From contig CAXNDX010000001.1 in NCBI GenBank assembly GCA_964201585.1, positions 1 to 34,723 on the forward strand: a stretch of DNA of 34,723 nucleotides. Reading direction: 5' to 3'. The translations under genes and the position numbers were made by a program. The notes under the pieces were generated by a model. That model was not told the origin of the DNA. It searched no databases and saw only the letters and a program-made list of their open reading frames with translations. The number at the start of each line of letters is the position of its first letter. Position 1 is the stretch's first letter. The DNA comes from Candidatus Woesearchaeota archaeon. GTDB taxonomy: Archaea > Nanobdellota > Nanobdellia > Woesearchaeales > GW2011-AR9. Shown here one piece after another: positions 751-32,740 of this stretch.

Positions 751-3207
751 TCAAGAACGTGATGCAACAAGTGTAGGTTCACAGTTCATTTTTCGTTGCG
801 GATCTTTTAGATCATAACAAACCACTCCATCCGCTGTCCAGAACCATCTTTCTTTATCTTTTCCTTGATTATTATTTCCAACATCACTTTGAATTCCTAA
901 TTTAACATATCTTGCTTTATATCCTTTAATCTGACATCCCTCTGCATTACATGTACTCAAAGCACCAGCTGTATTTGGAATAACTCCCTCTTGTTTTTCA
1001 GATACAAGATCCTCAATTTTTTCTAGATATGGTGCCGTTCCATGCTGTCCTACAACCGTTTTCATCTCAGGATACTGTTGAGATAAAATCGAAAAACCAG
1101 GATATACTTGTTCTGGCAAATACTTCTTTTGTGCATCAACTGAAGGTTCAATAGAATTGGTATTTAGTGACATAGGAGCCCGTACGGTATTACAAGCACT
1201 AAATGCTACTTCTTTCACTTGTCCTTTACTTTTTTCTTTAGGAAAATCACTAAAATAAAACATATCAATCGGACTATGATCTTTACCTTCTAACACATTT
1301 GGTGCATCTCTCCAAATATAATCAGTATCCCCAAAATGATGGCCTGTTACAATTAATCGTTCACTATTTGTAAACGGGGGTGCATCACGACTACTTACAA
1401 TATAACACCCCTTCTTTCTACACCAATCTAATGAATCTTTCGCCAATTCTGCATGATCACCTGCAACAATAATCGTTGTTGTAACCTTTTTTGAACCATC
1501 TTGTGGTACTATTACTCTCCCAAAAGAACGTGTCATCTTATCCTCGCAATCATCCTGCACAGAACAAGTTACTATTTTATTTTCACGGTTATTAAAAAAT
1601 TGTCCATTTCCAGGGATTGTTGAAGCAGTAGAACTAGGTGGCACTTTATCTGCCATAAATTCATTCGAAGAAATATGTTGTAACATCTCTTTATTATCTT
1701 TAACAAAAAAATAATCTACTCTTCCTGCATTTATTTTAGCAAGATTACCTGCCCCTTTCATCCCACTCTTTTGATCAATCACAATTGTACTGGCTACCTC
1801 ATAATTCCCCTTCGTCTTTTCGCGTAAACTAGAATAAGAAACTCGACCATCAACAATATTTTTTGCCTCAACTTTATCATAATAATGGTTTGATATAACT
1901 TCAATCTTATCTCCATGCTGTATATTACTAAATTGTAATCTTTCTTTATATCTTACATCCCCAATTGATCCTGGCGTATTAACTATACAACTATATCCTT
2001 TATGTTGTTGACAAAAAGAATCCGCTTGTCTTGATTTTTCTTGTGTATAATATACTCCTGAACTACTCTTAACTTTTAATCTCGACCCCTCCTCTTTAAA
2101 CCCCTCTTTAGTTGACTTACCATCTACTAATTCAGTATTACCTTTTAATATAAATTGATCCGCTAAAAATCCATCTTTAGATCTGATTTCTCCTGAAAAT
2201 CCTATCGTTTGACCACGAACCATTCTTAAGACCAATTGTTCTGTATTACACTTTTCTATGCAACTACTTCTAATAATGTCTTCACCATTTTTTCGTTCAT
2301 ATGTAAAATCACCACGATATTGTATTTTTGTAATCTTGTCATCCTTTTTCTCCGCCTCTAATATCAACTGTCCTTGTTTAATATTTAAAGAAGAACTGCT
2401 CTCCTTTTTCGTCTGTAAAACAACCCCCCCTTCAACTGTAATAATCTGTTTTCCCAAATCATCTTTCTTTTGTGATAACCTCTTTGAACCAAAAATATTT
2501 GTTTCATCCACTTGAACCGAACCATCTTTCATCACTTTAGCGGATCTAAATTCACTTGGATTAAAAGTCGTACTTTTCCCTTCTAATTTTTTTAGATCTG
2601 CACTTAAACCAGGAATTTTACTAGAGGTTGTACTTTCTGGCATTTTCGCCTCTGCTAATTCCCCTTTTAATTTTTCTAATAATTCATTATTTGGTGCAAC
2701 TGTTAACATTGATCCACTGTAACTTGTAATCGATGCTCCTTTATCATATATCCCATATTTATTCCAAAACCATTGATCTTTTGCTTTTGTATTATCATTA
2801 AGTAATCCCACATTTTTTTGTGCTTCTTGATCAAATCGTTCTAATACTGCAGGGGTAGCTAATAATTTTGAATTATCATCTACTACTTTTGCTGCTCGTA
2901 CCGGATCTTGTGTGAACGCTGCATTAAGCACTTTTGGATTACTTCCAATTAATTCTGGTTTTTTTTGGACTGCAATCCATGCCTGCTCTGAATTTCGTTC
3001 AAACGCCATTGCCGGATTTGACTCAAAATGTTGTTGTACATATTCTGGATTCTGCCATGGATCTTCTACTGGTTGAGGCACTGACGGATCAGAAATCGGA
3101 AGCATTCCCTCACCCTCTCCTAAAATCTGTATACTCTCTAATAGAAATAAAGTTAAAAGAAGCACTACACTTAACACCACTTTTTTTTGCCAATAAATAT
3201 TTGTCAT
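751..3207 (-). CDS. Large secreted or surface protein, family not recognised; possible caspase/CHAT-like His-Cys pair near the C-terminus
   Basis: Long ORF. The ATG at 3207 overlaps the upstream TGA (ATGA at 3204-3207) and gives a signal-like N-terminus MTNIYWQKKVVLSVVLLLTLFLL. Alternative ATGs are at 3225 and 3234. LIVTGHHFG followed by VAFSACNT resembles a clan CD dyad (weak). Confidence 0.7.
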   Translation of the reverse strand: MTNIYWQKKVVLSVVLLLTLFLLESIQILGEGEGMLPISDPSVPQPVEDPWQNPEYVQQHFESNPAMAFERNSEQAWIAVQKKPELIGSNPKVLNAAFTQDPVRAAKVVDDNSKLLATPAVLERFDQEAQKNVGLLNDNTKAKDQWFWNKYGIYDKGASITSYSGSMLTVAPNNELLEKLKGELAEAKMPESTTSSKIPGLSADLKKLEGKSTTFNPSEFRSAKVMKDGSVQVDETNIFGSKRLSQKKDDLGKQIITVEGGVVLQTKKESSSSLNIKQGQLILEAEKKDDKITKIQYRGDFTYERKNGEDIIRSSCIEKCNTEQLVLRMVRGQTIGFSGEIRSKDGFLADQFILKGNTELVDGKSTKEGFKEEGSRLKVKSSSGVYYTQEKSRQADSFCQQHKGYSCIVNTPGSIGDVRYKERLQFSNIQHGDKIEVISNHYYDKVEAKNIVDGRVSYSSLREKTKGNYEVASTIVIDQKSGMKGAGNLAKINAGRVDYFFVKDNKEMLQHISSNEFMADKVPPSSTASTIPGNGQFFNNRENKIVTCSVQDDCEDKMTRSFGRVIVPQDGSKKVTTTIIVAGDHAELAKDSLDWCRKKGCYIVSSRDAPPFTNSERLIVTGHHFGDTDYIWRDAPNVLEGKDHSPIDMFYFSDFPKEKSKGQVKEVAFSACNTVRAPMSLNTNSIEPSVDAQKKYLPEQVYPGFSILSQQYPEMKTVVGQHGTAPYLEKIEDLVSEKQEGVIPNTAGALSTCNAEGCQIKGYKARYVKLGIQSDVGNNNQGKDKERWFWTADGVVCYDLKDPQRKMNCEPTLVASRS

Positions 3208-4669: not shown

Positions 4670-5461
4670 ATGACCTATTTAAAAAACACATTTTTGCCAA
4701 TGGTTCTCAGCTCAATGTATGTCTGCGCCTCTTATTCTCCTCCAATCTATGGCCAAGAAGCAGCCCCTAACGTACTTTTTCAACAAAGTAATCTTGAAAC
4801 AAAAATACTTGAAGATAAAGAAGAAAAACCACTCTCACAACCCTATCGCTTTAGTGAGCAAGACCTTAACAAATATCGGCGCTGGAAACAACAAGCAATC
4901 GACCATTCAAAAAAAACAGGAGAAGTTGTTCTTATTATTAATAAATCAACCTATGAATTAGATGTATATCAAAAAGGCCAATTTCAAAAAAAATTTCCGA
5001 TTGAATTAGGAAAAAATAATTACGATGACAAAAAAATTCAAGGAGATAATACCACTCCTGAAGGTTTTTATAAAATTAGAAAAGTCAAAGATATCAATAA
5101 TACCCATTTTTATCGCGCCGCAGAACTTGACTACCCAAACAAACAGGATATCGCAGAATTCCATAGATTAAAAAAAACAGGTGCGATTCCTAAAAATGCA
5201 ACAATTGGGGGAGATATCAATATTCACGGTAAAGGGAGTGGGATTTCTCCTCTCCAAGGTGGTTCCAATTGGACACAAGGATGTGCGGCTCTTTCTAATG
5301 AAGATATGGATGAATTATTTCAGTATCTAAAACAAGAGACTCAAGTTTTAATCATCAAATATGATAGCCCTATTATCTCAATTATTCCACCTGATAGCAA
5401 AACAGTTATAAAACATCTCAAATATCTCACTAAATCCATTGATCAATCAATTTTTAAGTAA
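4670..5461 (+). CDS. Secreted L,D-transpeptidase (YkuD/ErfK fold) protein
   Basis: Hydrophobic N-terminus. The catalytic region INIHGKGSG...GGSNWTQGCAALSNEDMDELF matches the YkuD HG...GC signature. Confidence 0.75.
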   Translation: MTYLKNTFLPMVLSSMYVCASYSPPIYGQEAAPNVLFQQSNLETKILEDKEEKPLSQPYRFSEQDLNKYRRWKQQAIDHSKKTGEVVLIINKSTYELDVYQKGQFQKKFPIELGKNNYDDKKIQGDNTTPEGFYKIRKVKDINNTHFYRAAELDYPNKQDIAEFHRLKKTGAIPKNATIGGDINIHGKGSGISPLQGGSNWTQGCAALSNEDMDELFQYLKQETQVLIIKYDSPIISIIPPDSKTVIKHLKYLTKSIDQSIFK

Positions 5462-6526: not shown

Positions 6527-7933
6527 TCACTTCTCCACCAACAACTCCACCACATTCTGATCCGGATCAACAAACGTCGTAATTACCCCATAACTCTTCT
6601 TCATCATCCGTTGCCCAATTACAACTCCTTTCGCTTCCAATTTCTCCGTAATCCGCCCCAACTCCTCAACTGAATTCACACGCAGCTGCACAAGCACCGG
6701 ATTATTTTTATTATACGTAAACGTATACACTTCTCTATTCTTTTGTGGTTCAATTGCAAACGTCGTCTCCCCTGTTTCAAAGCCAAACCAATTAGAAGTA
6801 TTCTTCTCACACGCCACAAGCCCAACCACATCCCGATAAAACGCAACCAATCGCGTCACATCAGACGTATACACATTCACATACGACATCTTCAACCCCT
6901 CTGACCTCGCTGAATTCTTCACCTCAACCATCGCCCCCGCAACCAACAAAGGAAACGCAATCGTCGCATCACAATACACTTTCACATGCAACGCATCAGG
7001 CCGAACTTTCCCCCACGAAATCGCTTCCTCAACTCGCGCACCCGAATCCGACCCATCAAACTCCTGCGCCGTATTAATATACACTACATAATCAAACCCC
7101 TCGCGAAAAATATTCGCATTCAACGCAAAATGTTTACTTATTCCCCCACCTAAAATAATTCCACCCGTCTTATCAACATTCAGCGTCAGATCCACAATGG
7201 CTTTAATCTCCCCTGCAACATCAACATAAAAATCAGGATGTGATTGCTTGAAAAAGAAAATCATATCCCCAAACGAACCATCAATCAACCCCGGACAAAA
7301 AACAGGAATATCATTCTTTGCCGCCCAATACAAAATCGATTTCTCATCATTAATCTTTAATCCAATCTCTCGAATCAACTCATGCGGCGTAAAAATCTTC
7401 CCCTCTTTCTTCTGTCTATCATACATCGCCAACAAAAACTCCTGCATAAACTGATCAAAATACGCAAACCGATCATTTGGTACAAACACATTCCCAATCC
7501 GATTAATTCCATGCTCAAATAACATCCTCCCTGACGCCTCAAACTGCCCCAGCACAAACGGCTTCAAACACTTAATAATATCCTCTTCAATTCCCCCTGC
7601 CGAAGTTACCAACACCTGCACTTTCTTATTCTTAACAAGATACTTGATAATCTCCCTATTCCCCGAACTCACCATATTCGACGTATAAGCGAGAAATATC
7701 ATCGCTTTCTCTCGTAGCATCACGCGCACAACCTCCATCGCTTGCGCTAAGTTAGTACCCTGAAACCCCATCTTACTATACGCCTGCAAAAACGACTGAA
7801 AATCCAACCCTTGCTCAAAATCATACCCTTCAATCACCGGATACCCCTCAAGCGTCATCGTCTCTTTAGGCATATATTGCGCATGCTTTTCTTTCAACCC
7901 ATCCTTATTATTCATATTCTCTGTAAATTTCAT
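6527..7933 (-). CDS. dys: Deoxyhypusine synthase fused in frame to a C-terminal glyoxalase/VOC domain
   Basis: DHS hallmarks are present: VTSAGGIEED, ILGGGISKHF, EAISWGKV. The same ORF continues without a stop into MSYVNVYTSDVTRLVAFYRDVVGL...VVELLVEK (VOC fold). GGAGG lies 11 nt upstream of the ATG at 7933. The track start is at 7951. Confidence 0.85.
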   Translation of the reverse strand: MKFTENMNNKDGLKEKHAQYMPKETMTLEGYPVIEGYDFEQGLDFQSFLQAYSKMGFQGTNLAQAMEVVRVMLREKAMIFLAYTSNMVSSGNREIIKYLVKNKKVQVLVTSAGGIEEDIIKCLKPFVLGQFEASGRMLFEHGINRIGNVFVPNDRFAYFDQFMQEFLLAMYDRQKKEGKIFTPHELIREIGLKINDEKSILYWAAKNDIPVFCPGLIDGSFGDMIFFFKQSHPDFYVDVAGEIKAIVDLTLNVDKTGGIILGGGISKHFALNANIFREGFDYVVYINTAQEFDGSDSGARVEEAISWGKVRPDALHVKVYCDATIAFPLLVAGAMVEVKNSARSEGLKMSYVNVYTSDVTRLVAFYRDVVGLVACEKNTSNWFGFETGETTFAIEPQKNREVYTFTYNKNNPVLVQLRVNSVEELGRITEKLEAKGVVIGQRMMKKSYGVITTFVDPDQNVVELLVEK

Positions 7934-7985
7934 AGTATAGCGAGCCTCCATTAAATTCGAACAGTTTATTATGCAATTTGCGAAC

Positions 7986-9667: not shown

Positions 9668-10270
9668 TTATTTATTCATAAGCTCAATTACCCGAGTATA
9701 CTTCTGCTTGCTCATACATTCCAAATGGAATATATCCTCCACTCGTCTTCCTACATGATGTAGTATTCCTACATCACCATCTTTCAATTCTACCTCAAAT
9801 TCTTTGAACTCTTTGCCATTTTGTAATTTAAAATAATCCACAGTTGCTTCTAACTTTACCATTCCCTTCCCAAACACTATCTGCTGATGTTCAGTATCAG
9901 CATACGCCGATTCCAAAATCTCACCATAAAATCGCTCTAACCCAAACGTCTTTAATATACTCTGAGCATCCAACACTTCATTTGCCCAATGATTCTTTTC
10001 ATAACGATCATTAATTGGCCCAATCTTAAAATCGTAGCGGAACAATCCTTTATCTTTCTCAAGATCAAACCCCCCTACTCGACGAATCGTCTCTCCTTTC
10101 TGATATATCTGCAAATCTAGTGTATCATAATACTGAAACGTTCGTGTCACATGTTTTTGCAGCAGCACAGAAAAACCATTTTGAGTAATTATCTCTTCTA
10201 ATCCTTGTAATAGCTTTGCGCAATCATATTGCAAAGGGACATCATATTTCAATTCAATTTCTTTATTCAT
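9668..10270 (-). CDS. CYTH-domain protein (triphosphate tunnel metalloenzyme; class IV cyclase / triphosphatase fold)
   Basis: N-terminal EIELKY (ExExK), then YYDT, ETIRRV, and the acidic strand FEVELKDGD. Its ATG is coupled to the upstream stop (GTGAAGTAAAATG). Confidence 0.75.
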   Translation of the reverse strand: MNKEIELKYDVPLQYDCAKLLQGLEEIITQNGFSVLLQKHVTRTFQYYDTLDLQIYQKGETIRRVGGFDLEKDKGLFRYDFKIGPINDRYEKNHWANEVLDAQSILKTFGLERFYGEILESAYADTEHQQIVFGKGMVKLEATVDYFKLQNGKEFKEFEVELKDGDVGILHHVGRRVEDIFHLECMSKQKYTRVIELMNK

Positions 10271-10271
10271 T

Positions 10272-10700
10272 TTACTTCACCATTTCATCTAAAAAAGTAA
10301 CTTTAGTCTCATTTCGCGAATACTCCGGCACATTTATACACACACTTTCCAGTTGCGGATATTTTTGTTTATACATCTGCAGTATAGATTCTTTAAAGAA
10401 CTCTACAAATTTCTTTGGCACACTTCCATATCTTGTCGATTCCCCATACAGTTGCAATTCTCTATTTTCAATCTGTACTCTCCCTCCACCCAAAACTAAC
10501 TCTGGCTGTAGTGTGAATCCTTGTACAATCTCCTCATGCAGTGGACGTTGTGCATCATACCCTGCCCACAGGTCTACAGCATAAAGATCAAATAGATACA
10601 ATCTGTCTGAATTTGTCTGATGTCGATTAATCACAAATTTATGCCCATCACTTCCTATTTTTTCATCGATATATCCTGCTTTCAAGCCAGTCATTATCAT
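10272..10700 (-). CDS. Hypothetical protein, CYTH operon
   Basis: 142-aa ORF with GGAGG 9 nt upstream. No family recognised (LGGGRVQIENRELQLYGESTRYGSVP). Confidence 0.55.
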   Translation of the reverse strand: MIMTGLKAGYIDEKIGSDGHKFVINRHQTNSDRLYLFDLYAVDLWAGYDAQRPLHEEIVQGFTLQPELVLGGGRVQIENRELQLYGESTRYGSVPKKFVEFFKESILQMYKQKYPQLESVCINVPEYSRNETKVTFLDEMVK

Positions 10701-10737
10701 TTTTTTATTCCTCCTACTATATTTAGTATTTTTCTTA

Positions 10738-10857
10738 TCATTGTCGTATCACGCCAAGACCCTGCAGCGCAATCCATCTTGCTTTCTCTTGCGACCAGTG
10801 TGGATTCTTCCGCTCAAGCATATTTGTTATTTCTTGTAATTTATTATTATCTACCAT
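10738..10857 (-). CDS. Candidate 39-aa leader ORF of the CYTH operon
   Basis: GGAGG lies 9 nt upstream of the ATG at 10857. Translation: MVDNNKLQEITNMLERKNPHWSQEKARWIALQGLGVIRQ, ending in TGA at 10738-10740. Below the track cutoff. Confidence 0.35.
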   Translation of the reverse strand: MVDNNKLQEITNMLERKNPHWSQEKARWIALQGLGVIRQ

Positions 10858-10944
10858 TTTTATTTACCTCCATATCTGTCATAATAATCTAATTTCTCCA
10901 ACACCTACATAAAACTTTGTTGAAGAAATTTCTACAACAAAAAG

Positions 10945-10974: not shown

Positions 10975-11475
10975 ATGCCAACTAAAATCACAATGTTCCC
11001 TGGAGATAAGATTCGTTTTTTAACCGATATCCTGCGTAAACAAACCGCCCTTCGCAACCAAATCGAATCCCGTGCCAATATCACTATAGGCTTCTCAACC
11101 GCTATCCTCGCCTTCACCCTAAGCCAATCTTTGCAAGGCAAGACAAATACGGGCCTCATCATCATCCTCTCGTTCTCTATTCTCGCTCTGCTCTCTGGTC
11201 TGCTTGCGCTCAAACCATTACAACTATTTACCTCTAAAGGTCAAGCCCAAAGCGTGTTCTATCATACCGCTATCGCCAAACAAGATCTCGCCACATACAC
11301 CAAAAAATTAAAAGACATCACCAATAGCGAACAAAAAGTACTTGAACAATACGCCCTTGAAATTCATAACATGACCTACCACTCGATTCGCATCAAAAAA
11401 TTCCTCTCCAACCTCTCCATCAAACTCTTAGTATCCGGTATAATCATCGGTGGCATCATAACTCTCATCCACTAA
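10975..11475 (+). CDS. Small 3-TM protein resembling Pycsar-effector/SLATT-type (DUF5706-like) membrane proteins
   Basis: Amphipathic N-terminus, then two adjacent TM helices (ITIGFSTAILAFTLSQ; GLIIILSFSILALLSGLLAL). After these comes LKP...SVFYHTAIA...YALEIHNMTYHSIRIKKF and a final TM helix. Assignment is by remembered domain pattern only. Confidence 0.45.
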   Translation: MPTKITMFPGDKIRFLTDILRKQTALRNQIESRANITIGFSTAILAFTLSQSLQGKTNTGLIIILSFSILALLSGLLALKPLQLFTSKGQAQSVFYHTAIAKQDLATYTKKLKDITNSEQKVLEQYALEIHNMTYHSIRIKKFLSNLSIKLLVSGIIIGGIITLIH

Positions 11476-13861: not shown

Positions 13862-14467
13862 ATGGTACTTACAGACAACGAAAAACATATCCTCACCTCC
13901 CTTCTACGTAACTATCAAGAGCAGCTAAGCATCAATGGCTTGGCAAAAAGAACCAACATCACTCCTAAAGGCACCTATAAAATTCTTAAAAAATTAGAAC
14001 AAGACCATATTGTCCAAAAACAAAGTATCGCCTCCGCTGACATTTATCATCTAAACTTTAAAGATGAAAAAACAAAAGATATCGTCAACTACGCATTAAA
14101 AAGCGTATCTCCTCCAAATTCATACGTCAAACTACTCCAAAAAGACCTCGAACATTTATACAACACCACTCATGCCGTTATCCTCTTTGGCAGTACTCTG
14201 AGCAAAGGCATACAAGCCCAAGATATCGATCTTTTAATTATTCTTGATAAAAAAAAATTATCCCTCATTCAATCAACAATTAAAGAAATTGAAAAGATCA
14301 TACCAAAAAAGATTCATCCTCTCTTTCAAACAAAAGCTGACTTTCATAAAAATATCCAAAAACAAGATCCTGTTCTGATAAATTGCCTACAAAAAGGTTT
14401 TATATTCAAAGGTCATAACCTCATTTATACTTTAATTAACCATGACGCAAACAGAAAAAAAAATTGA
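13862..14467 (+). CDS. Minimal nucleotidyltransferase (MNT) antitoxin with an N-terminal wHTH
   Basis: AVILFGSTLSKGIQAQDIDLLIILD matches the GS...D.D NTase motif. The N-terminal LSINGLAKRTNITPKGTYKILKKLEQDHIV reads as a wHTH. Confidence 0.75.
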   Translation: MVLTDNEKHILTSLLRNYQEQLSINGLAKRTNITPKGTYKILKKLEQDHIVQKQSIASADIYHLNFKDEKTKDIVNYALKSVSPPNSYVKLLQKDLEHLYNTTHAVILFGSTLSKGIQAQDIDLLIILDKKKLSLIQSTIKEIEKIIPKKIHPLFQTKADFHKNIQKQDPVLINCLQKGFIFKGHNLIYTLINHDANRKKN

Positions 14468-14936
14468 CTGGTGTCTAAACAAAGCACAAAAAGAAGGCAA
14501 GAAACACAAAGGTCTTCGTAGAATAGCTCCTAATGAATCAGAAGTCCAAAAACATCTCCTGAAAGCCCAGCGTAATCTTCTTCTGGTAGATGACCTCATA
14601 AAATTAAAATACAGTGATTGGGCTGTCAGCGCTATTTTTTACAGTATGTACCATTGTTTATTAGCCATTCTTTGGCACCATAGATATGAAAGCCGTAATC
14701 AGTCCTGCACCTTTGCTGTTATAGAACAACTCATTCTCGAGAAAAAGATCTCTCTCACGCTTGAAGAATTGCAGCATATTCAAGAAAGCCACACCGACCA
14801 TGAAGAAACAGTCGTTGATTTGCGTGAATTCTATCAATATGGAACTGAAACCGAAGTGGAACAAGAAAAGATTATCAAATTACAGCAAGAAGCCAAAGAA
14901 TTTCTAACAAAAGTAAAAACACTCTTACAAAAATAA
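14442..14936 (+). CDS. HEPN-domain toxin partner
   Basis: Overlaps the MNT gene by 26 nt. Helical HEPN-like core: DWAVSAIFYSMYHCLLAILWHHRYESRNQSCT. Confidence 0.7.
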   Translation: MTQTEKKIDWCLNKAQKEGKKHKGLRRIAPNESEVQKHLLKAQRNLLLVDDLIKLKYSDWAVSAIFYSMYHCLLAILWHHRYESRNQSCTFAVIEQLILEKKISLTLEELQHIQESHTDHEETVVDLREFYQYGTETEVEQEKIIKLQQEAKEFLTKVKTLLQK

Positions 14937-15676: not shown

Positions 15677-16579
15677 TTAACTTCGTTTTCCTCGCCGACT
15701 CCAATGATTCTTACCTCGTTTTTTAATTTTTGCCGGTGCCCTCTGTAATCGAGGCATACTCTCTTTTAGAATCCGCAAATAACTCCCCATACTTCCCCAC
15801 TCAATCTCTAAGCCAAATTGTTTATGAACCACCTTTAGTAATTCCTCTATTGTATAATTACAGCGTGAATCAGAAATACGATATAAAATCCCCTCTTGAG
15901 ATAACTGTTGGAGTGCATACACTCCTTGAAGTTGTCTAAGTCCATTTCCCGTAATCAACTCTGTTGCAAAAATAACTCTAGTGTCTGGTAATTGCAATGT
16001 AAAATTCTGAACCAAGCGATTCGCACTCGAAAGCGAGTATCCCAAATGATCCGCAATATTTTGCTGAGACATCTCTTGTAGATCAAATGGGCTACTACTC
16101 AAAATGTATTTTCTTTGAACCTCACACAAATAAGCTGCAATTTTTAACTGATTTTCTTCAAGCCACTTCCAATTGTGTAAAAATTGTCTTGAAAAATTTC
16201 CAGGATTATCAGAACCCTGATCTTTAAATTTCTCCAATTTTGCATAAATTGATTCATCCAAAAATGGATTGTACATAATCCCATAATTCCCACAATTTTC
16301 AGAAACTAACACTTGCGGTCGCTCTAAATATCGTTGTTCACTAACAGACCCTTGCACGCTCTTGCATATTTGAAGAAAAGATGGATGTGTAAAATAATTT
16401 CCCCTAGAGTGATACTCCGGTTCTTGTTGATAGAATTCTTGTACCGCAGCTAAACTTCGATCTAACACATCTTCCAACTCCAACGCCGAAAGTCCCAGTA
16501 TAGGATTTAAAATCGGCGAACGCGGTTCTGAACGCTGTACTTGTTGCACTCTATAAGATGTTCGAATTTCCAATTCCAT
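15677..16579 (-). CDS. Divergent sigma-54 (RpoN)-like protein
   Basis: Region-I-like ILNPILGLSALELEDVLDRSL. Core-binding-like RPQVLVSENCGNYGIMYNP and WLEENQLKIAAYLCEVQRKYIL. HTH: LQEMSQQNIADHLGYSLSSANRLVQNFTLQLPDTRVIFATELI. The RpoN box is degenerate. Confidence 0.65.
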   Translation of the reverse strand: MELEIRTSYRVQQVQRSEPRSPILNPILGLSALELEDVLDRSLAAVQEFYQQEPEYHSRGNYFTHPSFLQICKSVQGSVSEQRYLERPQVLVSENCGNYGIMYNPFLDESIYAKLEKFKDQGSDNPGNFSRQFLHNWKWLEENQLKIAAYLCEVQRKYILSSSPFDLQEMSQQNIADHLGYSLSSANRLVQNFTLQLPDTRVIFATELITGNGLRQLQGVYALQQLSQEGILYRISDSRCNYTIEELLKVVHKQFGLEIEWGSMGSYLRILKESMPRLQRAPAKIKKRGKNHWSRRGKRS

Positions 16580-16602
16580 TTAATGTGATAAATTGATAAT
16601 TC

Positions 16603-16610
16603 TTTATAAA
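16603..16610 (-). promoter_or_regulatory. TATA box TTTATAAA of the sigma-54-like gene
   Basis: Centred 27.5 nt upstream of the ATG at 16579, with no SD, so a leaderless layout. Confidence 0.5.
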
Positions 16611-16646: not shown

Positions 16647-17015
16647 TCACCTCCTAAACTCCACATTTTTAATATGTTCAAATTCTTTATCCCCTGTAAG
16701 AAATTTAATCCCTTTCTCCAACGCCAATTGATACCCTAAACAATCAGCATACGAAAGCTTCTTCTTTCTCTGTTCATAGCGAAACTTCATTGCTTTTTTG
16801 ATTGTCTCTTTCGTTGGCTCAATAACAAAAGGCAATAACGTCTCAAGCACCACATCTGCTTTTTCTGAACCTGCATCCGCAAGCACCGAATAATACACCT
16901 CTAACATATTAAGCAAAGTCAAAATGCCCGTATGCTGCTCAAAATAAGAGATGAATTTTAGATTATTATTCAGATACTCAATTATTGCATAACTATCATA
17001 AAAAAATACAGCCAT
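16647..17015 (-). CDS. vapC: PIN-domain toxin VapC
   Basis: MAVFFYDSYAIIEYL (N-terminal Asp) and YADCLGYQLALEKGIKFLTGDKEF (C-terminal acidic residues). Lies directly downstream of an AbrB-type antitoxin. Confidence 0.8.
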   Translation of the reverse strand: MAVFFYDSYAIIEYLNNNLKFISYFEQHTGILTLLNMLEVYYSVLADAGSEKADVVLETLLPFVIEPTKETIKKAMKFRYEQRKKKLSYADCLGYQLALEKGIKFLTGDKEFEHIKNVEFRR

Positions 17016-17026
17016 GCCTTACCTCA

Positions 17027-17236
17027 TTACCATCCTTCCCGCATTTCATTTTTAAGCTGTTGGGCTGATTTTTTAAAATGGACTAATCCTCGTAGCTTTG
17101 TAATATCTGCAACACTTTTAATTTCAATAATGATCCGCTGATTCTCCTGCAAATGTTCTTTATCCACAATTTCTTTAGGCAGAGTTATACCTAATGAATT
17201 TCCCCATTTTCGTGTAACCGTTTCAAATTCGCCCAT
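17027..17236 (-). CDS. vapB: AbrB/SpoVT-type antitoxin VapB
   Basis: TRKWGNSLGITLPKEIVDKEHLQENQRIIIEIK is a swapped-hairpin AbrB motif. Confidence 0.8.
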   Translation of the reverse strand: MGEFETVTRKWGNSLGITLPKEIVDKEHLQENQRIIIEIKSVADITKLRGLVHFKKSAQQLKNEMREGW

Positions 17237-24458: not shown

Positions 24459-25046
24459 CTAATTTTTCGCGTTCACCGTTAAATGCACAACTAACCCGCC
24501 TTCTCCCGACTTAAAGTACTGTACTTTATCTACATACGTATGCATAAATGACGTCCCTGTACCATTATTCGTACCCGGTTTTGGCGTATTCGTAAACTCA
24601 TAGAAATCTAACATTCGCTCTCGATGCTTTCCTTCTTTATGCCGTAACACAAACGGAATAAAATCCGCATTAAGAATCCCTCCCTGGTCAATTACTGAAA
24701 TTTCAAGCGTATCTTCTGCAATTTTATACGTCAACGTTATTTTTTTTGCAGGATCCAGTTTATTACCATGCTGGTGTGCATTCAATACCGCTTCATATAA
24801 CGCCGTAAAAAAATTAGGATTATATCCTTGATTTTCCGCCTCTCGCCCAATAGGTCCAATAATTTCTCTAATTTGCCCCGCATATTCTTTTCGATTTGTA
24901 CTTAAACAAAACTCTTTGATAATATAACTTGGCTTAATTTCATACGTAGGAATCTCAAAATTTCGTAAATCGACTGTTCCTTGACGTCGAAAATGCTCCC
25001 GAAGAACTGAATCTAAACTATCAACATCAAAAATATCTAGTGCCAT
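24459..25046 (-). CDS. HATPase_c-type protein resembling anti-sigma serine kinases (RsbW/SpoIIAB family)
   Basis: N box: ALYEAVLNAHQHGN. G1: ISVIDQGGI. G2: NNGTGTSFM. It is short (195 aa) and single-domain. TTTATAAA at 25068-25075 is centred 25.5 nt upstream of the ATG. Confidence 0.6.
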   Translation of the reverse strand: MALDIFDVDSLDSVLREHFRRQGTVDLRNFEIPTYEIKPSYIIKEFCLSTNRKEYAGQIREIIGPIGREAENQGYNPNFFTALYEAVLNAHQHGNKLDPAKKITLTYKIAEDTLEISVIDQGGILNADFIPFVLRHKEGKHRERMLDFYEFTNTPKPGTNNGTGTSFMHTYVDKVQYFKSGEGGLVVHLTVNAKN

Positions 25047-27090: not shown

Positions 27091-27489
27091 CTACAATTCC
27101 AAAATCACTTTCTTTAACCCTGGCACTCTCTTAAAATCACTATCTAACGTCAATAATGTATCTCCTTTCTCCATTGTCACGGCTGCGATAAATAAATCAA
27201 ATTGTGCAATTCCTAAACCTTTCTTTAACATCTGATGCAGCACCTCAGAAAAAAGTAAACCGCTGCGATACGTTGTTTGTAAAATTGTGTATTGTTCTAA
27301 CCTCTCTAATATCCTATCTTTATTTTTATCATTCTTGCCTAAAATCCCATAATAAAATTCGCAAAAAGTGAAGATCGTAATTGCCAATTCCACATCCGGC
27401 GCATCTTTTAACACCGCAATTTGTTGAATAATCTTTTCATTTCCTTTTTCTACTTCAATTAATACGCTTGTATCAAGTACAAATCCCAT
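27091..27489 (-). CDS. vapC: PIN-domain toxin VapC
   Basis: MGFVLDTSVLIE, then FCEFYYG, then LLTLDSDFKRV. The start codon abuts the vapB stop. Confidence 0.85.
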   Translation of the reverse strand: MGFVLDTSVLIEVEKGNEKIIQQIAVLKDAPDVELAITIFTFCEFYYGILGKNDKNKDRILERLEQYTILQTTYRSGLLFSEVLHQMLKKGLGIAQFDLFIAAVTMEKGDTLLTLDSDFKRVPGLKKVILEL

Positions 27490-27827: not shown

Positions 27828-28724
27828 CTACGTCCTTGGCACATCTGTAGGTGAAACAACTTTTGTTCGAATATGATAATGCGTAGAGTGCCCCGGCTCA
27901 TGACGTAATACCCCTCCAACCTCATTCCATCTCTGCATCCCATACTTTCCAACCACATACGACCGTAATCCATTAATCAATTTCTGATCTAGAAAAATCA
28001 TCTCAACCTCAAACGGCCCTCGTACTACAGAATCAATAAACAACCAATTCGCATCAAGCGCCTGAGTATTATTAAAATCCGGATGTAACCCTCCTCTCTT
28101 TTTCATTTTAGTTGTGGCATTATAATATCTTCCTTCAACCACGTCATACCCATAAATCCCCACATCTACATCTCGACCATTATGATGACTTTTATGCGGT
28201 CGTAATCTCCCTCCTCCTTCCCGACTTAAATCATGCACAACCAACGGCACATCATACACCTCTTTCATCACACATGCCGAATAATTGATCACATCAACCA
28301 ACTCTTGGCGTCCATACGTCCGTTCAGGTTTTCGTATCTCTACTAACTCGCTCTCTTTCAACTTCATCTGTGAACGACCAATCAATCCTCGCAACCCTGA
28401 AGCTGGCATTCTATATTCATTTAATTTTACTCGACACATCACCTGTGGCCTATGCTCTTGTTCATTCATCTCTACCATACACTGTTCTAACGTTTTCCCT
28501 TCAGAAACAAGCCCCGTATATTTTTCTCTCTTATCCTCATTAACTTGTTTCACAAAAGAAGGAATATACTCCTCTGCTCTCACATAAGAACTATGTGCAG
28601 CTGCAACTGCTCCGACGACAAACGGCAGCAATCTTTTTCCAATTAAATGTAAATATTCTTTCATTCTTCTTAGTATCTCACGTACTCTACACCTAAACCA
28701 AGAACATACATTAAATCTATTCAT
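27828..28724 (-). CDS. LAS-family zinc peptidase resembling penicillin-insensitive murein endopeptidase MepA (M74)
   Basis: RPHKSHHNGRDVDVGIY and EPGHSTHYHIRT match the H..(.)..D and H.H zinc ligand motifs. A signal-like segment follows the alternative ATG at 28664 (MKEYLHLIGKRLLPFVVGAVAAAHS). Confidence 0.7.
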   Translation of the reverse strand: MNRFNVCSWFRCRVREILRRMKEYLHLIGKRLLPFVVGAVAAAHSSYVRAEEYIPSFVKQVNEDKREKYTGLVSEGKTLEQCMVEMNEQEHRPQVMCRVKLNEYRMPASGLRGLIGRSQMKLKESELVEIRKPERTYGRQELVDVINYSACVMKEVYDVPLVVHDLSREGGGRLRPHKSHHNGRDVDVGIYGYDVVEGRYYNATTKMKKRGGLHPDFNNTQALDANWLFIDSVVRGPFEVEMIFLDQKLINGLRSYVVGKYGMQRWNEVGGVLRHEPGHSTHYHIRTKVVSPTDVPRT

Positions 28725-28972
28725 CGGATTATTTGTAAAAAAAGTAAAAATAATCTAAAAACAACCTCAATCTAAAATAAAAAAATAAATCTATTTTCAT
28801 AAAGTGAACTGCTTTATCAAAAAGCATATACTGTATTTGTTTTTCACTTCAACTTCTTCAACTTATGAAATATCAATATCGGATACAACAAAATCAACAC
28901 GGCATACATTCCAAACAATAACCCATACCACTCTTTGTAAAATAACAGTCCTGCCATCGCCAACGTTCCCGC

Positions 28973-29953
28973 TCATCCAATATTCAAAAACAACTCTCTA
29001 CACCACCAAAAATTCATATCTTTTTCTTTCACATCCATACTAATTGCCAATCGTACCGGCGAACTAACTGTTGCTATAACTGTATACACTCCCATCACAA
29101 CTAAAAACCATACCAATGTAGTTGCAAACATAAATCCAATCGCACACAAAAATAACGACGAAAATAAAACCACAATATACTTCTTTCGCTCCTGTGTTCC
29201 ATCTGACACCTTTGCCACAAAAAACCCCGCAACTACCCCTGTAATTGCCACATAACTCCAAAAAAATCCTACTTCGGTTTCATTCTGCAAAAATCTCAGC
29301 GCATACACACTTAATATTACCGAACTAAAGAAATGTAATGCTCCCTCAAACATCGATATCGTTTTCAACCCTTTAAACCGTGCAATCGCCTCCCCTCGCT
29401 GCACCTTCCACACAACATCAGGAACTTTTCGCCAAAACCACCACATCGCCATAAAATATAATCCCGCCATCAGCAAAAATAACCACTTATATCCATAAAG
29501 CCGCATCAACAACGCTCCAATTGGTGGAATAATCATCGTTAACATTCCCGGTGCTACCATATAACTCCATGAATCCTGTGCATGTCTTGCTGAATGCGAC
29601 TCCTGAAAAAAAATCATATTCAACGGCACCCAGAATAAAATAATTAATCCTGCCCAACCAATAACATACACAAAAAACGCAATTTGCAAAGGCAATACAA
29701 AAAATCCAAACGCCATAACACAATTCAACATAAAACTCATACGCAAAAACCACTTACTCTTATACGTAGTCAAAAAAAACAACATCACTACACTCACAAT
29801 CGCAAGAGCCATATATCCAAAAATAAAAATCCACTTCCCATATCCCTGTTCGCGTAATAAAAACGGTAAAAAAAGAAATGAAATCGCCCAAAATCCCGTT
29901 TGTGTAAGCAGTAAGCGCAAGGGTAAAGAAAATCGTAAATTAAATCTCATCAT
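28973..29953 (-). CDS. MFS-type transporter, truncated at an in-frame TGA after about 10.5 TM helices
   Basis: A 6+central loop+4.5 TM layout. The same frame continues past the TGA (28973-28975) for 42 codons to the next stop at 28844-28846, completing TM11 and adding TM12. The track start at 29956 is GTG; the ATG is at 29953. Confidence 0.65.
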   Translation of the reverse strand: MMRFNLRFSLPLRLLLTQTGFWAISFLFLPFLLREQGYGKWIFIFGYMALAIVSVVMLFFLTTYKSKWFLRMSFMLNCVMAFGFFVLPLQIAFFVYVIGWAGLIILFWVPLNMIFFQESHSARHAQDSWSYMVAPGMLTMIIPPIGALLMRLYGYKWLFLLMAGLYFMAMWWFWRKVPDVVWKVQRGEAIARFKGLKTISMFEGALHFFSSVILSVYALRFLQNETEVGFFWSYVAITGVVAGFFVAKVSDGTQERKKYIVVLFSSLFLCAIGFMFATTLVWFLVVMGVYTVIATVSSPVRLAISMDVKEKDMNFWWCRELFLNIG

Positions 29954-29979
29954 CACTGCTCCCTATTTTTATACTACTC

Positions 29980-30441
29980 TCATTCTCTTAACACCGCAAC
30001 CATTCGTCGTAATATAAGATCCTCACGTTCCATGGACCCTTTATGAAAATCAAACCACACTCCATAAAACCACTCGCGTGAAAACATCCTCATTGAACCA
30101 TAATGTGGATCCTGCACATAAATATTCTTATCATCAATTCCTGCCACAAGTGACCAATGTCCCTCATCAGTTGACCACCATTGCACTAACACCGGAATAT
30201 TCTGAGTAATATACTCATTCACATTCGCAAATTGCGCAGTATCAATCACTCTTGTCTGCAATCCAAAATAGTTGCACCCTTTGATAATCCCATCTAACGA
30301 CACCCCTTTCTCACGTGTCGCTCCACACACCTGGGCAATCTCCTCTTCTGTTTTCTCACTCCCATAAAAATCAAGAATCATCTTAAGACATGCCGGTCCG
30401 CAAAACCCTGGTGACTGTGTAAACGGCTTATAATGCATCAT
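29980..30441 (-). CDS. Papain-fold thiol peptidase, C39-like (Peptidase_C39_2 / phytochelatin-synthase-like)
   Basis: FTQSPGFCGPACLKMILDFYG (catalytic Cys context) and EGHWSLVAGIDDKNIYVQDP (His/Asp). The track start at 30447 is TTG; the ATG is at 30441. Confidence 0.65.
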   Translation of the reverse strand: MMHYKPFTQSPGFCGPACLKMILDFYGSEKTEEEIAQVCGATREKGVSLDGIIKGCNYFGLQTRVIDTAQFANVNEYITQNIPVLVQWWSTDEGHWSLVAGIDDKNIYVQDPHYGSMRMFSREWFYGVWFDFHKGSMEREDLILRRMVAVLRE

Positions 30442-30447
30442 ACTCAA

Positions 30448-31644
30448 CTACTCACTCAACCCTTGTTTATATAACTCTCGCAAAAACATATTTCCTTGCG
30501 CCGCTCGTTCTGCTGTAAATCGTGTTGCGTTATATCCATCTTTTCGTAAATATCTATTTAAAGATGTTGAAGGATTAATTCCACTCTGTGTCATCTCAAT
30601 TATGGGATTAAGATATCCTTGCTCTGATTTAGACAACCCTTGTTCTGCAAATTGTATAATTTGACCCACATACTTCTGCATATGCTCAGATGTAAGCCCA
30701 TATCTAATCGCTTCCTGTTCTAACATTCGTAACGTTCGCAACGTTGGCAACACAATTTTTCGCTCCGAAAACTCATACTCATTATCTCGTTGCGCAATCT
30801 CAACTTTAATATTCTCTTGTAACATTCTATCATTACACCCTTTATACAATGCCATGGCTCCTAACCCATACTGCAACGGCGTGCTGTCACATGTTCGTAT
30901 TTCAAACGTTCCTGTTTTTCCAATTCCATCACGTGTACGAATCGGTGCATATCCTGTATTTTCTGGTGTAAACAACGAACCAAACTTTTCCGCTGACATT
31001 CCTGACGCACTCTGCCACTGCCAAAACCGTTCAATATTCTGCTTCTCCAACTCCTCTAACGTCTGCGGATAGTCCTGCAGTTGCGCATGCAATGGAAACG
31101 CTGAAAACACATGATACCTCATCAATTGGATTCGATGGCAATTCAAACTATTCAAGCCATCATAGCGTAAAGGTGACGTCGATGTAACACCATACGACAT
31201 CGGATCAAGTGCATATAACAACTGAAACTGCGCTAATTTTTTCTTCTCATTCGTATCTTGAGAAATATGAATATGGATTCCTGAAATCGTATTAATCTTT
31301 AAATTCTTCTCCCTGCCAATAATCGTATCATACGCATCATACCTCTCTTTACCTTCACGAGTAATTCCTTTTCCTGCTCCATACTCACTTGCCGCTACCG
31401 GATACACTCCATAATCAGCACAAATCTGTTCTAACAACCCTAATTTCTCCCTCATCTCTATTGCCAATTCACTAATTGTCTCCAGAGGTTTAGAATTATA
31501 CTCTACCTGTGCTAACGTCGCTTCGGCAACAAAACAACTCGGATTTCGTCTATCACCTAGAACTGTATCTGCTATATTAGAAAGATACCCCTCTTTATCT
31601 ATCAAATTCAATTCCACTTCCACACCTATAGATGATTGACTCAT
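30448..31644 (-). CDS. Carboxylate-amine ligase, glutamate-cysteine ligase family 2 (GCS2/YbdK-like)
   Basis: IGVEVELNLIDKEGYL, ISGIHIHIS and FEIRTCDS are typical of the GCS2 family. Confidence 0.8.
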   Translation of the reverse strand: MSQSSIGVEVELNLIDKEGYLSNIADTVLGDRRNPSCFVAEATLAQVEYNSKPLETISELAIEMREKLGLLEQICADYGVYPVAASEYGAGKGITREGKERYDAYDTIIGREKNLKINTISGIHIHISQDTNEKKKLAQFQLLYALDPMSYGVTSTSPLRYDGLNSLNCHRIQLMRYHVFSAFPLHAQLQDYPQTLEELEKQNIERFWQWQSASGMSAEKFGSLFTPENTGYAPIRTRDGIGKTGTFEIRTCDSTPLQYGLGAMALYKGCNDRMLQENIKVEIAQRDNEYEFSERKIVLPTLRTLRMLEQEAIRYGLTSEHMQKYVGQIIQFAEQGLSKSEQGYLNPIIEMTQSGINPSTSLNRYLRKDGYNATRFTAERAAQGNMFLRELYKQGLSE

Positions 31645-31702
31645 AATGTTATACCTCTTTTATCACAATTATTTAGCAAACATAAATTTTATTTGTAATC
31701 TA

Positions 31703-32740
31703 TTATTTGTCTAACTTTCCTGAACGTTCTAACGCTTCTGTCGCAATTCGCACAATTAACTGATCATACGTCATTCCCGCACCCTCAATCATATTTCGTA
31801 ACGTATCCCCAGTACTATGGATATCTGGATTAGCATTAATATCAATAATATACGGCACCGCTCGCCCTTGATCATCTCGTTTCACACGATAATCAAACCG
31901 TCCATAATCAGTTATTCCAAACAATTCCGCAATTCTTCCTGTATAATATTTTGTCATCTCCTCTAACGATTCTGGCAAGCCCGAAAATTCTGCCTTTGCC
32001 ACTTCATCCCATTTAATATCATAATCCCGAAACTTCGCTCTCCCCTCAAATCCCTTGCGGAACGCAAAATGCGCAACTTTCAAATACGATTTATTCGCAT
32101 TTCCCACAAAAAAACACGATAACTCTTTAAAATCTGCATCTTCCAGATACTCTTCTAACACCCACTGTGTCAAATCTCCTTTCTTTTGCTGTATCTCTTG
32201 TACTTTACCGCTCACCTGCTCAGGAGTATACATCACCGAATCTTTCGTCATGCCATAACTCCCATACGAATTACGCTGCTTTAAAATAACCGGAAACTTT
32301 TGTCCATTCCTCTTCTCGCTCATACCATCTCCCACTTCATCCCATTGCGAAAGTAATTGTACTTGCGGCGTTGGAATTCCCATCTCTTGCGTATATAATT
32401 TTGTAATATACTTATCTAACGTGCTTCGTAACACCGCACTTCCTGATCCCGTAAACGGAATTTTCAACACTTCCATAAACGACGCAATATGTGATTCATA
32501 TGCAATATTTTGATAAATCCCTAAATCTGCACAATTGAATACCAAATCAACTAGATTCCCTTCTTTTAACCGTTGCAAACCTTCTACCCATCGCAAATGA
32601 GTATCCAAATACAATCCTGCCACTGTATGCCCTTCTTTTCGTAATGCCTCTGTCACATCTTGTTGTATACCCCAAGAATTTTGTACTGGTTTTAGTTCAC
32701 TTTCACTAATCCCTTGATGTAATACGATAATATTTGCCAT
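31703..32740 (-). CDS. ATP-grasp ligase of the D-Ala-D-Ala ligase-like type
   Basis: N-terminal Ddl-like domain (VDLVFNCADLG...IPFTGSGS...DKYITK), a central FPVILKQRNSYGSYGM, and the C-terminal YGRFDYRV...YIIDINANPD. Confidence 0.8.
   Translation of the reverse strand: MANIIVLHQGISESELKPVQNSWGIQQDVTEALRKEGHTVAGLYLDTHLRWVEGLQRLKEGNLVDLVFNCADLGIYQNIAYESHIASFMEVLKIPFTGSGSAVLRSTLDKYITKLYTQEMGIPTPQVQLLSQWDEVGDGMSEKRNGQKFPVILKQRNSYGSYGMTKDSVMYTPEQVSGKVQEIQQKKGDLTQWVLEEYLEDADFKELSCFFVGNANKSYLKVAHFAFRKGFEGRAKFRDYDIKWDEVAKAEFSGLPESLEEMTKYYTGRIAELFGITDYGRFDYRVKRDDQGRAVPYIIDINANPDIHSTGDTLRNMIEGAGMTYDQLIVRIATEALERSGKLDK

Follow-up and report, generated by a model that had tools for sequence, protein, structure and literature searches.

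The 34,723-nucleotide contig CAXNDX010000001.1 of a Candidatus Woesearchaeota archaeon (assembly GCA_964201585.1; the window hereafter, meaning the whole stretch of DNA analysed) carries a minus-strand gene for a 300-aa protein that, as judged by profile comparison and predicted fold, is a true homologue of the bacterial sigma factor sigma-54 (RpoN), collinear with it from the PDVxV hairpin through the RpoN domain. By the same comparisons the protein is not a sigma-54 orthologue and belongs to a separate family of short sigma-54-like proteins without the core-binding domain (CBD). We put the probability at roughly 0.55 that it is a free-standing, sequence-specific DNA-binding transcription regulator built from the promoter-recognition module of sigma-54.

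The resemblance to sigma-54 exceeds what profile searches would give by chance, but only at the level of the family. Taken alone, the window protein matches the sigma-54 DNA-binding domain model (DBD; PF04552) at E 0.18 and 12.0 bits, below the gathering score of 22.8, and TIGR02395 at E 0.014 and 14.4 bits, failing an equivalog cut-off of 277 bits. A search of the PDB by sequence with this query gave no match, and a word-indexed search with it as single query returned one homologue only. Generic helix-turn-helix (HTH) models remained sub-threshold (HTH_Crp_2, 20.4 bits vs 27; Sigma70_r4_2, 11.9 vs 25.7), as did matches to Crp, IclR and MarR models, which cover only 23-48 residues of the HTH. 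An exhaustive HMMER search gathered 80 cluster representatives at E <= 1e-3, almost all of them between 250 and 300 aa in length, and relatives at E 1e-61 to 1e-3 align over window residues ~24-280. PF04552 is matched by 45 of the 60 relatives scanned (best E 7.8e-15, 55 bits); several of these 45 exceed the gathering score and span model positions ~27-150 of 160, RpoN box included. In NCBIfam, sigma-54 models were found for six relatives, with alignments always over the last ~45% of the model and far under the cut-offs (19-55 bits for TIGR02395, all under 277 bits); the sole non-sigma-54 match among the relatives was a weak one of P0018 to the sigma-70/extracytoplasmic function (ECF) superfamily. 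The family consensus bears the sigma-54 signatures STVSR and ARRTVxKY.

Profile-profile alignment (hhalign) matches the family to E. coli RpoN with a probability of 96.9% (E 1.3e-10) and to an eight-species sigma-54 alignment, its diversity drawn from PLSDB plasmids, with 99.1% (E 1e-18); the confident part lays window residues ~85-282 onto RpoN 272-476. In a word-indexed search of 5.8 billion sequences, which was saturated and returned few family members, the family profile retrieved three-domain bacterial sigma-54 proteins at E 4e-11 to 1e-9, and tblastn with the single relatives P0048 and P0004 gave four matches, three under annotated rpoN genes and the fourth in an unannotated record. Structure prediction, which the earlier note on this DNA had proposed as a check, points the same way: an AlphaFold model from a 60-sequence alignment is confident (predicted local distance difference test, pLDDT, 88.5; pTM 0.81; a model from two sequences reached pLDDT 36 and was unusable), and a Foldseek search of the PDB places sigma-54/sigmaN chains in all of the top 25 positions (E values as low as 9.5e-6, 230-270 aligned columns). 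The TM scores of these matches are about 0.42-0.46 and their root-mean-square deviation is high, as one would expect of a protein with several flexibly joined domains. To speak of a sigma-54 gene nevertheless overstates the case, because the full RpoN architecture is not followed and the window protein fails every curated sigma-54 cut-off.

The gene, its promoter and the parts of its product map as follows.

15677-16579, minus strand: coding sequence of the short sigma-54-like protein, 300 aa with an ATG start (from the list of open reading frames); stop codon at 15677-15679; public assemblies contain an identical protein, P0001.
16603-16610, minus strand: TTTATAAA, resembling a TATA box; its centre lies 27.5 nt before the A of the start codon at 16579, a leaderless archaeal layout.
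16445-16579, minus strand: region-I-like N-terminus, residues 1-45, with the family motif GLSxLELExLLDxSL (profile-profile alignment).
16325-16444, minus strand: family-specific helical linker (GNYF, CKxVxG), residues 46-85, in place of sigma-54 region II and CBD; conserved within the family.
16268-16324, minus strand: beta-hairpin, residues 86-104, equivalent to sigma-54 PDVLV...LN (E. coli 272-290), the tail of the Pfam CBD model (hhalign).
16097-16198, minus strand: long helix, residues 128-161, equivalent to the sigma-54 extra-long helix, W...Q..I..YLC..Q..Y (hhalign and model).
15995-16078, minus strand: HTH, residues 168-195, equivalent to E. coli RpoN 363-390 (column counts, sub-threshold HTH matches and model helices).
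15755-15874, minus strand: RpoN-domain equivalent, residues 236-275 (alignments).
15773-15802, minus strand: RpoN box, residues 260-269, reading EWGSMGSYLR vs ARRTVxKYR (alignments).
15680-15754, minus strand: lineage-specific, very basic C-terminal tail, residues 276-300 (KIKKRGKNHWSRRGKRS), from alignment with the relative P0002, whose tail is likewise basic.

The window protein has the length and order of the short family, i.e. region-I-like helix, linker, hairpin, long helix, HTH and RpoN domain, and all motifs of the family set (GLSxLELExLL, GNYF, PQ[IV]xV...YN, W...Q..I..YLC..Q..Y and NLT[IL]QLPD..VIFA) are found in it as GLSALELEDVL, GNYF, PQVLV...YN, WLEENQLKIAAYLCEVQRKY and NFTLQLPDTRVIFA. 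The peptides on which the earlier note had based its reading of the 300-aa frame are likewise present: ILNPILGLSALELEDVLDRSL at residues 23-43, RPQVLVSENCGNYGIMYNP at 87-105, FLHNWKWLEENQLKIAAYLCEVQRKYIL at 133-160, the HTH stretch at 167-209 and GSMGSYLRILKES at 262-274. In the AlphaFold model residues 31-50 are helical (pLDDT above 90), the hairpin strands run over 90-95 and 98-103, the long-helix region consists of helices 128-154 and 156-161 (pLDDT 96-98), the HTH has helices at 172-179 and 183-190, and the C-terminal tail falls to pLDDT 53-62.

Relative to sigma-54, the family lacks some parts and keeps others. E. coli RpoN is composed, in Pfam terms, of an activator-interacting domain (AID, 5-48), the CBD (116-303) and the DBD (317-475), and residues ~120-215 of sigma-54 are its main core-binding determinant. 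The CBD model (PF04963) matches none of the 60 members, and only its last ~30 positions, i.e. the hairpin (E. coli 272-303), can be aligned. Compared with RpoN 57-271, residues 30-86 are indistinguishable from shuffled controls; region II and roughly 85% of the CBD are therefore absent, and on this result we reject retention of the CBD. The RpoN architecture that the earlier note read in order thus survives in part: hairpin, long helix, HTH and RpoN domain are collinear, while region II and the bulk of the CBD (~57-271) have no counterpart, and what had been taken for a core-binding-like segment amounts to the last ~30 CBD-model positions and the long helix of the DBD. The region-I-like stretch fared in between. 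Region I (E. coli 8-47) aligns in register with the family N-terminus (score 18.8, P 0.0014, weak evidence; 200 column shuffles gave a mean of 7.3 and a maximum of 13.7, with 0 of 200 reaching the observed score), and the AID model (PF00309) matches neither the window protein nor 46 N-terminal fragments of relatives at E <= 10. The alignment suggests that the family N-terminus resembles region I. In the three-domain profile check that the note had called for, then, only the DBD answered, sub-threshold for the window protein (12 bits) and with matches for 45 of 60 relatives, the AID and CBD having none.

Within the collinear part, several residues of sigma-54 are widely kept across the family and partly lost in the window copy. 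The Pro274 equivalent in the hairpin is kept in 52 of 61 relatives, and 47 of 61 have R at the position of Arg383, which in the window protein is R188; there the HTH motif STVSR is altered to SSANR with its arginine kept. Each of the RpoN-box positions R456, T457, K460 and Y461 is retained by between 40 and 51 of the 61 relatives (R456 in 51, T457 in 46, Y461 in 48); P0004 and P0205 are relatives with an intact box. The Arg455 equivalent is R in 30 of 61 and W in the window protein, and that of Arg456, R in 51 of 61, is G. The window box, EWGSMGSYL, has thus lost both arginines, the T and the K and keeps only the Y, as degenerate as the earlier note described it; the box of P0002, the closest relative of the window protein, is equally so, the family form (A/S)RRT(V/L)xKY being lost in both. 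Where sigma-54 has an invariant KY (K388-Y389) after the HTH, the family has its own NLT[IV]QLPD. Compared with the homologue at locus L003, dN/dS is 0.28 overall, 0.19 over residues 1-230 and 0.47 over the RpoN-domain part (C-terminal 65 codons). These ratios indicate that the gene is under selection, with the constraint on the C-terminal domain apparently relaxed or shifted.

Such losses might be read as decay, the gene being a functionless remnant of a horizontally acquired bacterial rpoN: the protein is shorter than sigma-54, its RpoN box is degenerate and its STVSR altered, and the last 65 codons are under relaxed constraint (0.47). We think this very unlikely, as the reading frame runs unbroken for 300 codons behind a TATA box of its own, residues 1-230 evolve at a dN/dS of 0.19, the length and the family-specific motifs (NLTIQLPD, GLSPLELE) recur in about 80 diverged relatives, the AlphaFold model is confident, and composition is fully ameliorated to the strand bias of the host.

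The window itself is archaeal, as the earlier note had it: it encodes ribosomal protein L1, L10/P0 with RL10P_insert, the acidic stalk protein P1 and deoxyhypusine synthase, as well as TrmB- and Lrp/ArsR-type regulators. The TATA-like octamer of the sigma-54-like gene is laid out as at neighbouring genes, an earlier observation that we could reproduce; with a strict pattern, at least eight of the 38 window genes have such an octamer with its centre 25-30 nt ahead of the start codon, and Shine-Dalgarno-like GGAGG/GAGG occurs at most of the remaining genes. The same TATA spacing recurs at the relatives' genes in L003, L015 and L022. The GC content of the gene (0.378) and its GC skew at third codon positions read on the plus strand (GC3 skew, -0.68) match 36 of the 38 window genes, including the ribosomal protein genes 4 kb away, and the gene and its flanks were assembled independently, and identically, in the Logan assemblies of two other sequencing runs, ERR3719144 and ERR5863107. 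Because two assemblies agree and GC and GC3 skew match, a chimeric join or contamination, against which the earlier note had asked for a safeguard, is very unlikely. An assembly chimera, or bacterial DNA joined to archaeal flanks, would fit the otherwise bacterial distribution of sigma-54 homologues and the metagenomic source of the assembly; we give it next to no credence, given the same neighbours in both independent assemblies, the compositional match to ribosomal protein genes, the archaeal-type TATA at -27.5 and the relatives on other clearly archaeal contigs. From this sequence context the gene is native to the archaeon, and it is predicted to be expressed.

The strand asymmetry of the window (1-34723) is extreme in its own right. 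Plus-strand GC skew is -0.35 overall, GC3 skew read on the plus strand lies at about -0.4 to -0.9 in 36 of 38 genes whichever strand is coding, and coding-strand GC3 skew is accordingly -0.65 for plus-strand and +0.75 for minus-strand genes. The contig of a close relative (L003) has the same asymmetry, and the other family loci are without it.

How might such a protein work? Among sigma factors, only sigma-54 is known to bind promoter DNA in the absence of core polymerase; from this ability we infer that family members are free-standing DNA-binding regulators. The family has the promoter-recognition module of sigma-54 (hairpin, extra-long helix, the HTH that reads the -12 element and the RpoN domain that reads the -24 element) together with a short region-I-like N-terminal helix, and is without region II and the CBD, the polymerase anchor. 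Because the CBD is missing and the archaeal host presumably lacks a bacterial polymerase, the protein would not act as a sigma factor. It would instead act at the TBP/TFB promoters of archaea, probably through occupancy or bending of the DNA there, and would do so independently of contact with the polymerase core. The lineage of the window protein and P0002, having lost the RpoN-box arginines and gained a basic tail, would probably read DNA through the HTH (the Arg383 equivalent) and non-specific contacts. Homology, fold and domain content are observed for the family, as are the native archaeal setting and purifying selection for the window gene; binding to DNA, a regulatory role and freedom from the polymerase core are what we infer from them.

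Several points weigh against a DNA-binding regulator of this kind. The conserved region-I-like helix is superfluous for a simple one and hints at a partner, for instance an AAA+ ATPase or the polymerase; about 35 kb of the genome is covered here, and such a partner may be encoded elsewhere. The loss of the RpoN-box arginines makes DNA binding less certain for the window copy. We found no DNA target of the family, and across the family loci examined the gene neighbourhood is not conserved and indicates no regulon. The GG-N10-GC type of promoter, whose presence the earlier note had proposed to look for, is not enriched: -24/-12 elements (TGGCAC-N5-TTGCW, up to three mismatches) number 107 in the 35-kb window against 118 +/- 10 expected. 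The loci L017, L022 and L007 do have a slight excess of such elements, as two-mismatch matches, which in L022, where positions were checked, are intragenic. The window also holds no -24/-12 element with one mismatch or fewer, and the archaeal relatives' loci have no intergenic near-consensus sites. Lacking enrichment in the window and with only a marginal signal in a few relatives' loci, canonical -24/-12 promoters were rejected as the target. In the 58% GC locus L024 a perfect sigma-54 promoter core, TGGCACG-N4-TTGCT, lies within the family gene itself (1670-1684, plus strand), where it encodes M-A-R-I-L-L; it may be a coincidence.

A partner of the AAA+ type would be expected if the protein were a genuine initiation factor, with region I, the long helix and the hairpin as its contacts to the archaeal RNA polymerase, and holding a closed complex that is remodelled by an ATPase like the bacterial enhancer-binding proteins (bEBPs) that serve sigma-54. 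Two observations speak for it, namely the conserved region-I-like N-terminus aligned in register and a single bEBP-type gene, at L022 (16556-17548, minus strand), 8 kb from the family gene (P0008) on a contig whose genes follow the leaderless TATA layout of archaea. The product of that gene (330 aa) has Sigma54_activat, AAA_lid_14 and HTH_8 domains with Walker A and B motifs and matches ZraR at 5.4e-59; its gene lies downstream of nifS/NifU/FeS-assembly-like genes, and GIASNV replaces the GAFTGA loop with which bEBPs contact sigma-54. Linkage to a bEBP as a general feature was rejected, because such a gene was seen at this one locus only among the loci examined. The window, in agreement with the earlier note, has none: neither domain scans nor local phmmer found a Sigma54_activat match among its open reading frames. 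Nor does the window encode a bacterial RNA polymerase core. Sigma-54 engages beta-flap and beta-prime sites of the bacterial polymerase, and the archaeal polymerase surface differs there. With that surface, the missing CBD, the replaced GAFTGA loop, the lack of a bEBP near the family gene at the other loci and unenriched -24/-12 elements, an initiation factor of this kind seems to us quite unlikely.

Known systems offer several comparisons. Like bacterial sigma-54 (PF00309, PF04963 and PF04552), the family is collinear with E. coli RpoN 272-476, in most relatives keeps ARRTVxKY, has a Leu-rich N-terminal helix that, on weak evidence, aligns with region I, and finds only sigma-54 chains as its top PDB fold matches. 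It differs in being about 60% as long, with neither region II nor a detectable CBD, in having NLT[IV]QLPD for K388-Y389 and Q or E for D275, and in its setting, an archaeal genome with TBP/TFB-type promoters and loci in which no -24/-12 promoter or GAFTGA activator was seen. Small archaeal HTH regulators (TrmB, Lrp/AsnC, MarR and ArsR types, several of them encoded in the window) would be analogues in likely mode of action, as small cytoplasmic DNA-binding proteins at TATA/BRE promoters, and they too are stand-alone genes with their own promoters; their fold and ancestry are unrelated, whereas the window protein has two separate DNA-reading elements and the region-I-like helix. The L022 ATPase resembles bEBPs (PspF, ZraR, NtrC1) in its AAA+ core, lid and Fis-type HTH_8, and PspF in having no receiver domain, but it departs from them in its GIASNV loop, its archaeal promoter layout, its position after nifS/nifU-like genes and the lack of linkage to a family gene elsewhere. 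Truncated forms of RpoN have been noted in bacteria, in Neisseria and, as non-bona-fide partial RpoN, in a few Actinomycetota (PMC12316311). They share with the short family a derivation from sigma-54, the loss of at least one of the three domains and the view that they are not functional sigma factors, but the truncation described there is the opposite one. The partial Actinomycetota proteins were dismissed there uncharacterised (PMC12316311); the family loci L018 and L024 may be bacterial counterparts of these cases.

The family is found in several archaeal settings. The relatives' locus L020 contains the 3' end of an archaeal 23S rRNA, deoxyhypusine synthase, ZPR1 and OapB/C; L023 has a tRNA intron endonuclease, an archaeal-type Hel308 helicase and TYW2; and L025 has a Cdc6 lid domain, Mre11/Rad50-like genes and TYW2. 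The L025 protein is MBS3056546.1, annotated by NCBI as 'hypothetical protein [Candidatus Aenigmarchaeota archaeon]' and the one annotated member. The contig of P0004 bears the label of an archaeal metagenome-assembled genome and comes from a 0.1-µm groundwater fraction; a scan of genome contigs with P0004 found only this contig. The assemblies GCA_964395935.1 and GCA_964441265.1 carry the family as well. L022 (28.6% GC) has TATA-like octamers 23-30 nt before at least 10 start codons and almost no Shine-Dalgarno sequences, an archaeal leaderless layout. Distant members occur in DNA of 48-58% GC, at L018/L019 (~1-Mb scaffolds; 10001-10915) and L024 (940-1842), with Mur ligases, FemAB or an S-layer homology (SLH) protein in the vicinity. 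About 7 nt ahead of the ATG stands TTGACA-N16/17-TAnAAT, a leaderless promoter of bacterial type; these members are probably bacterial, so that the short family is probably also present in bacteria. In a neighbour-joining tree, which is crude, without support values and descriptive only, bona fide sigma-54 proteins form one cluster with the short family outside it, the putative bacterial members form a separate clade, and the window protein and P0002 are a divergent long branch within the clade of known archaeal members. At L007 (7914-10109, plus strand) two family genes stand in tandem, the first (P0030, 471 aa) with an unrelated N-terminal extension of ~270 aa and the second shorter, at E 2e-51 to the family HMM. 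No degenerate DNA pattern of acceptable specificity reached more than 11% of the family. A viral origin was rejected: neither two protein scans nor a motif scan of IMG/VR turned up a relative, BFVD had no structural match, and a phage collection gave only rpoN genes and one unannotated match.

Toxin-antitoxin pairs often adjoin family genes, with HEPN/NTase, HicA and ParE near those of relatives. In the window, a PIN gene with MazE/AbrB lies directly upstream of the sigma-54-like gene (16647-17236), an MNT-like nucleotidyltransferase with an HTH and a 164-aa partner, of toxin-antitoxin type, occupies 13862-14936, and a further PIN gene lies at 27091-27489. A 195-aa HATPase_c_2 protein (24459-25046, minus strand) has sub-threshold matches to the anti-sigma factors SpoIIAB and RsbW, and at L020 two small HATPase_c genes stand about 4 kb away from the family gene. 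The deoxyhypusine synthase of the window (6527-7951, minus strand; 474 aa) is fused to a C-terminal domain of the glyoxalase/dioxygenase superfamily, and a 166-aa protein (10975-11475, plus strand) matches the transmembrane domain of Pycsar effectors, PycTM, weakly and below threshold (E 1.9e-4).

Also on this archaeal contig is a set of enzyme types known from bacterial cell-wall or peptide processing: a YkuD L,D-transpeptidase (4670-5461, plus strand) and, at 27828-32740 (minus strand), an M74 murein-endopeptidase-like protein, a major facilitator superfamily (MFS) transporter, a peptidase C39, a GCS2-type ligase and a D-Ala-D-Ala-ligase-like ATP-grasp protein. Together with the domains that the family retains, which are what a competitor for sigma-54 sites would need, the YkuD, M74-like and D-Ala-D-Ala-ligase-like proteins could be taken to mean that the sigma-54-like protein is an effector or decoy, mimicking the DNA- or activator-binding parts of sigma-54 and disturbing the sigma-54 promoters or bEBPs of a bacterial partner. 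Its N-terminus has no hydrophobic signal sequence, however, no secretion system is encoded nearby, the RpoN box that would serve the -24 element is lost in the window copy, and the known hosts of DPANN are archaea, all of which make this highly improbable.

As far as we know, the textbook view is that archaea have no sigma factors. Full-text literature searches found no description of sigma-54-like proteins in archaea, 'RpoN' in DPANN papers denoting RNA polymerase subunit N. A 2025 survey likewise treated sigma factors as absent from archaea, using 380 archaeal proteomes as a negative control and finding no bEBPs in them (PMC12316311). The short sigma-54-like family is thus previously undescribed. 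It is invisible in routine annotation because all members scanned fall under the NCBIfam cut-offs, its annotated member being a 'hypothetical protein'.

There is then a conserved, selected archaeal family homologous to sigma-54 and without the polymerase anchor, a natural dissection of sigma-54 into a DNA-reading and a core-binding module. Sigma-54 is unrelated to sigma-70, and its origin is unexplained. Two bolder ideas about a promoter-recognition module standing free in DPANN, and probably in some bacteria, are unlikely but would matter: it could descend from a pre-sigma ancestor, in which case sigma-54 would have arisen when such a DNA-binding protein gained a CBD, or it could serve an AAA+-driven, enhancer-type switch on the archaeal polymerase, in which case some archaea would pair it with bEBP-like ATPases such as that of L022. 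The separate cluster of sigma-54 proteins in the neighbour-joining tree is compatible with the first idea. The family may offer a lead on the origin of sigma-54; alternatively, archaea may have received parts of the bacterial initiation machinery by transfer and put them to new use as ordinary regulators. Few regulators are known in the genome-reduced DPANN lineages, and for these the short sigma-54-like proteins would be a candidate new class of archaeal transcription regulator.

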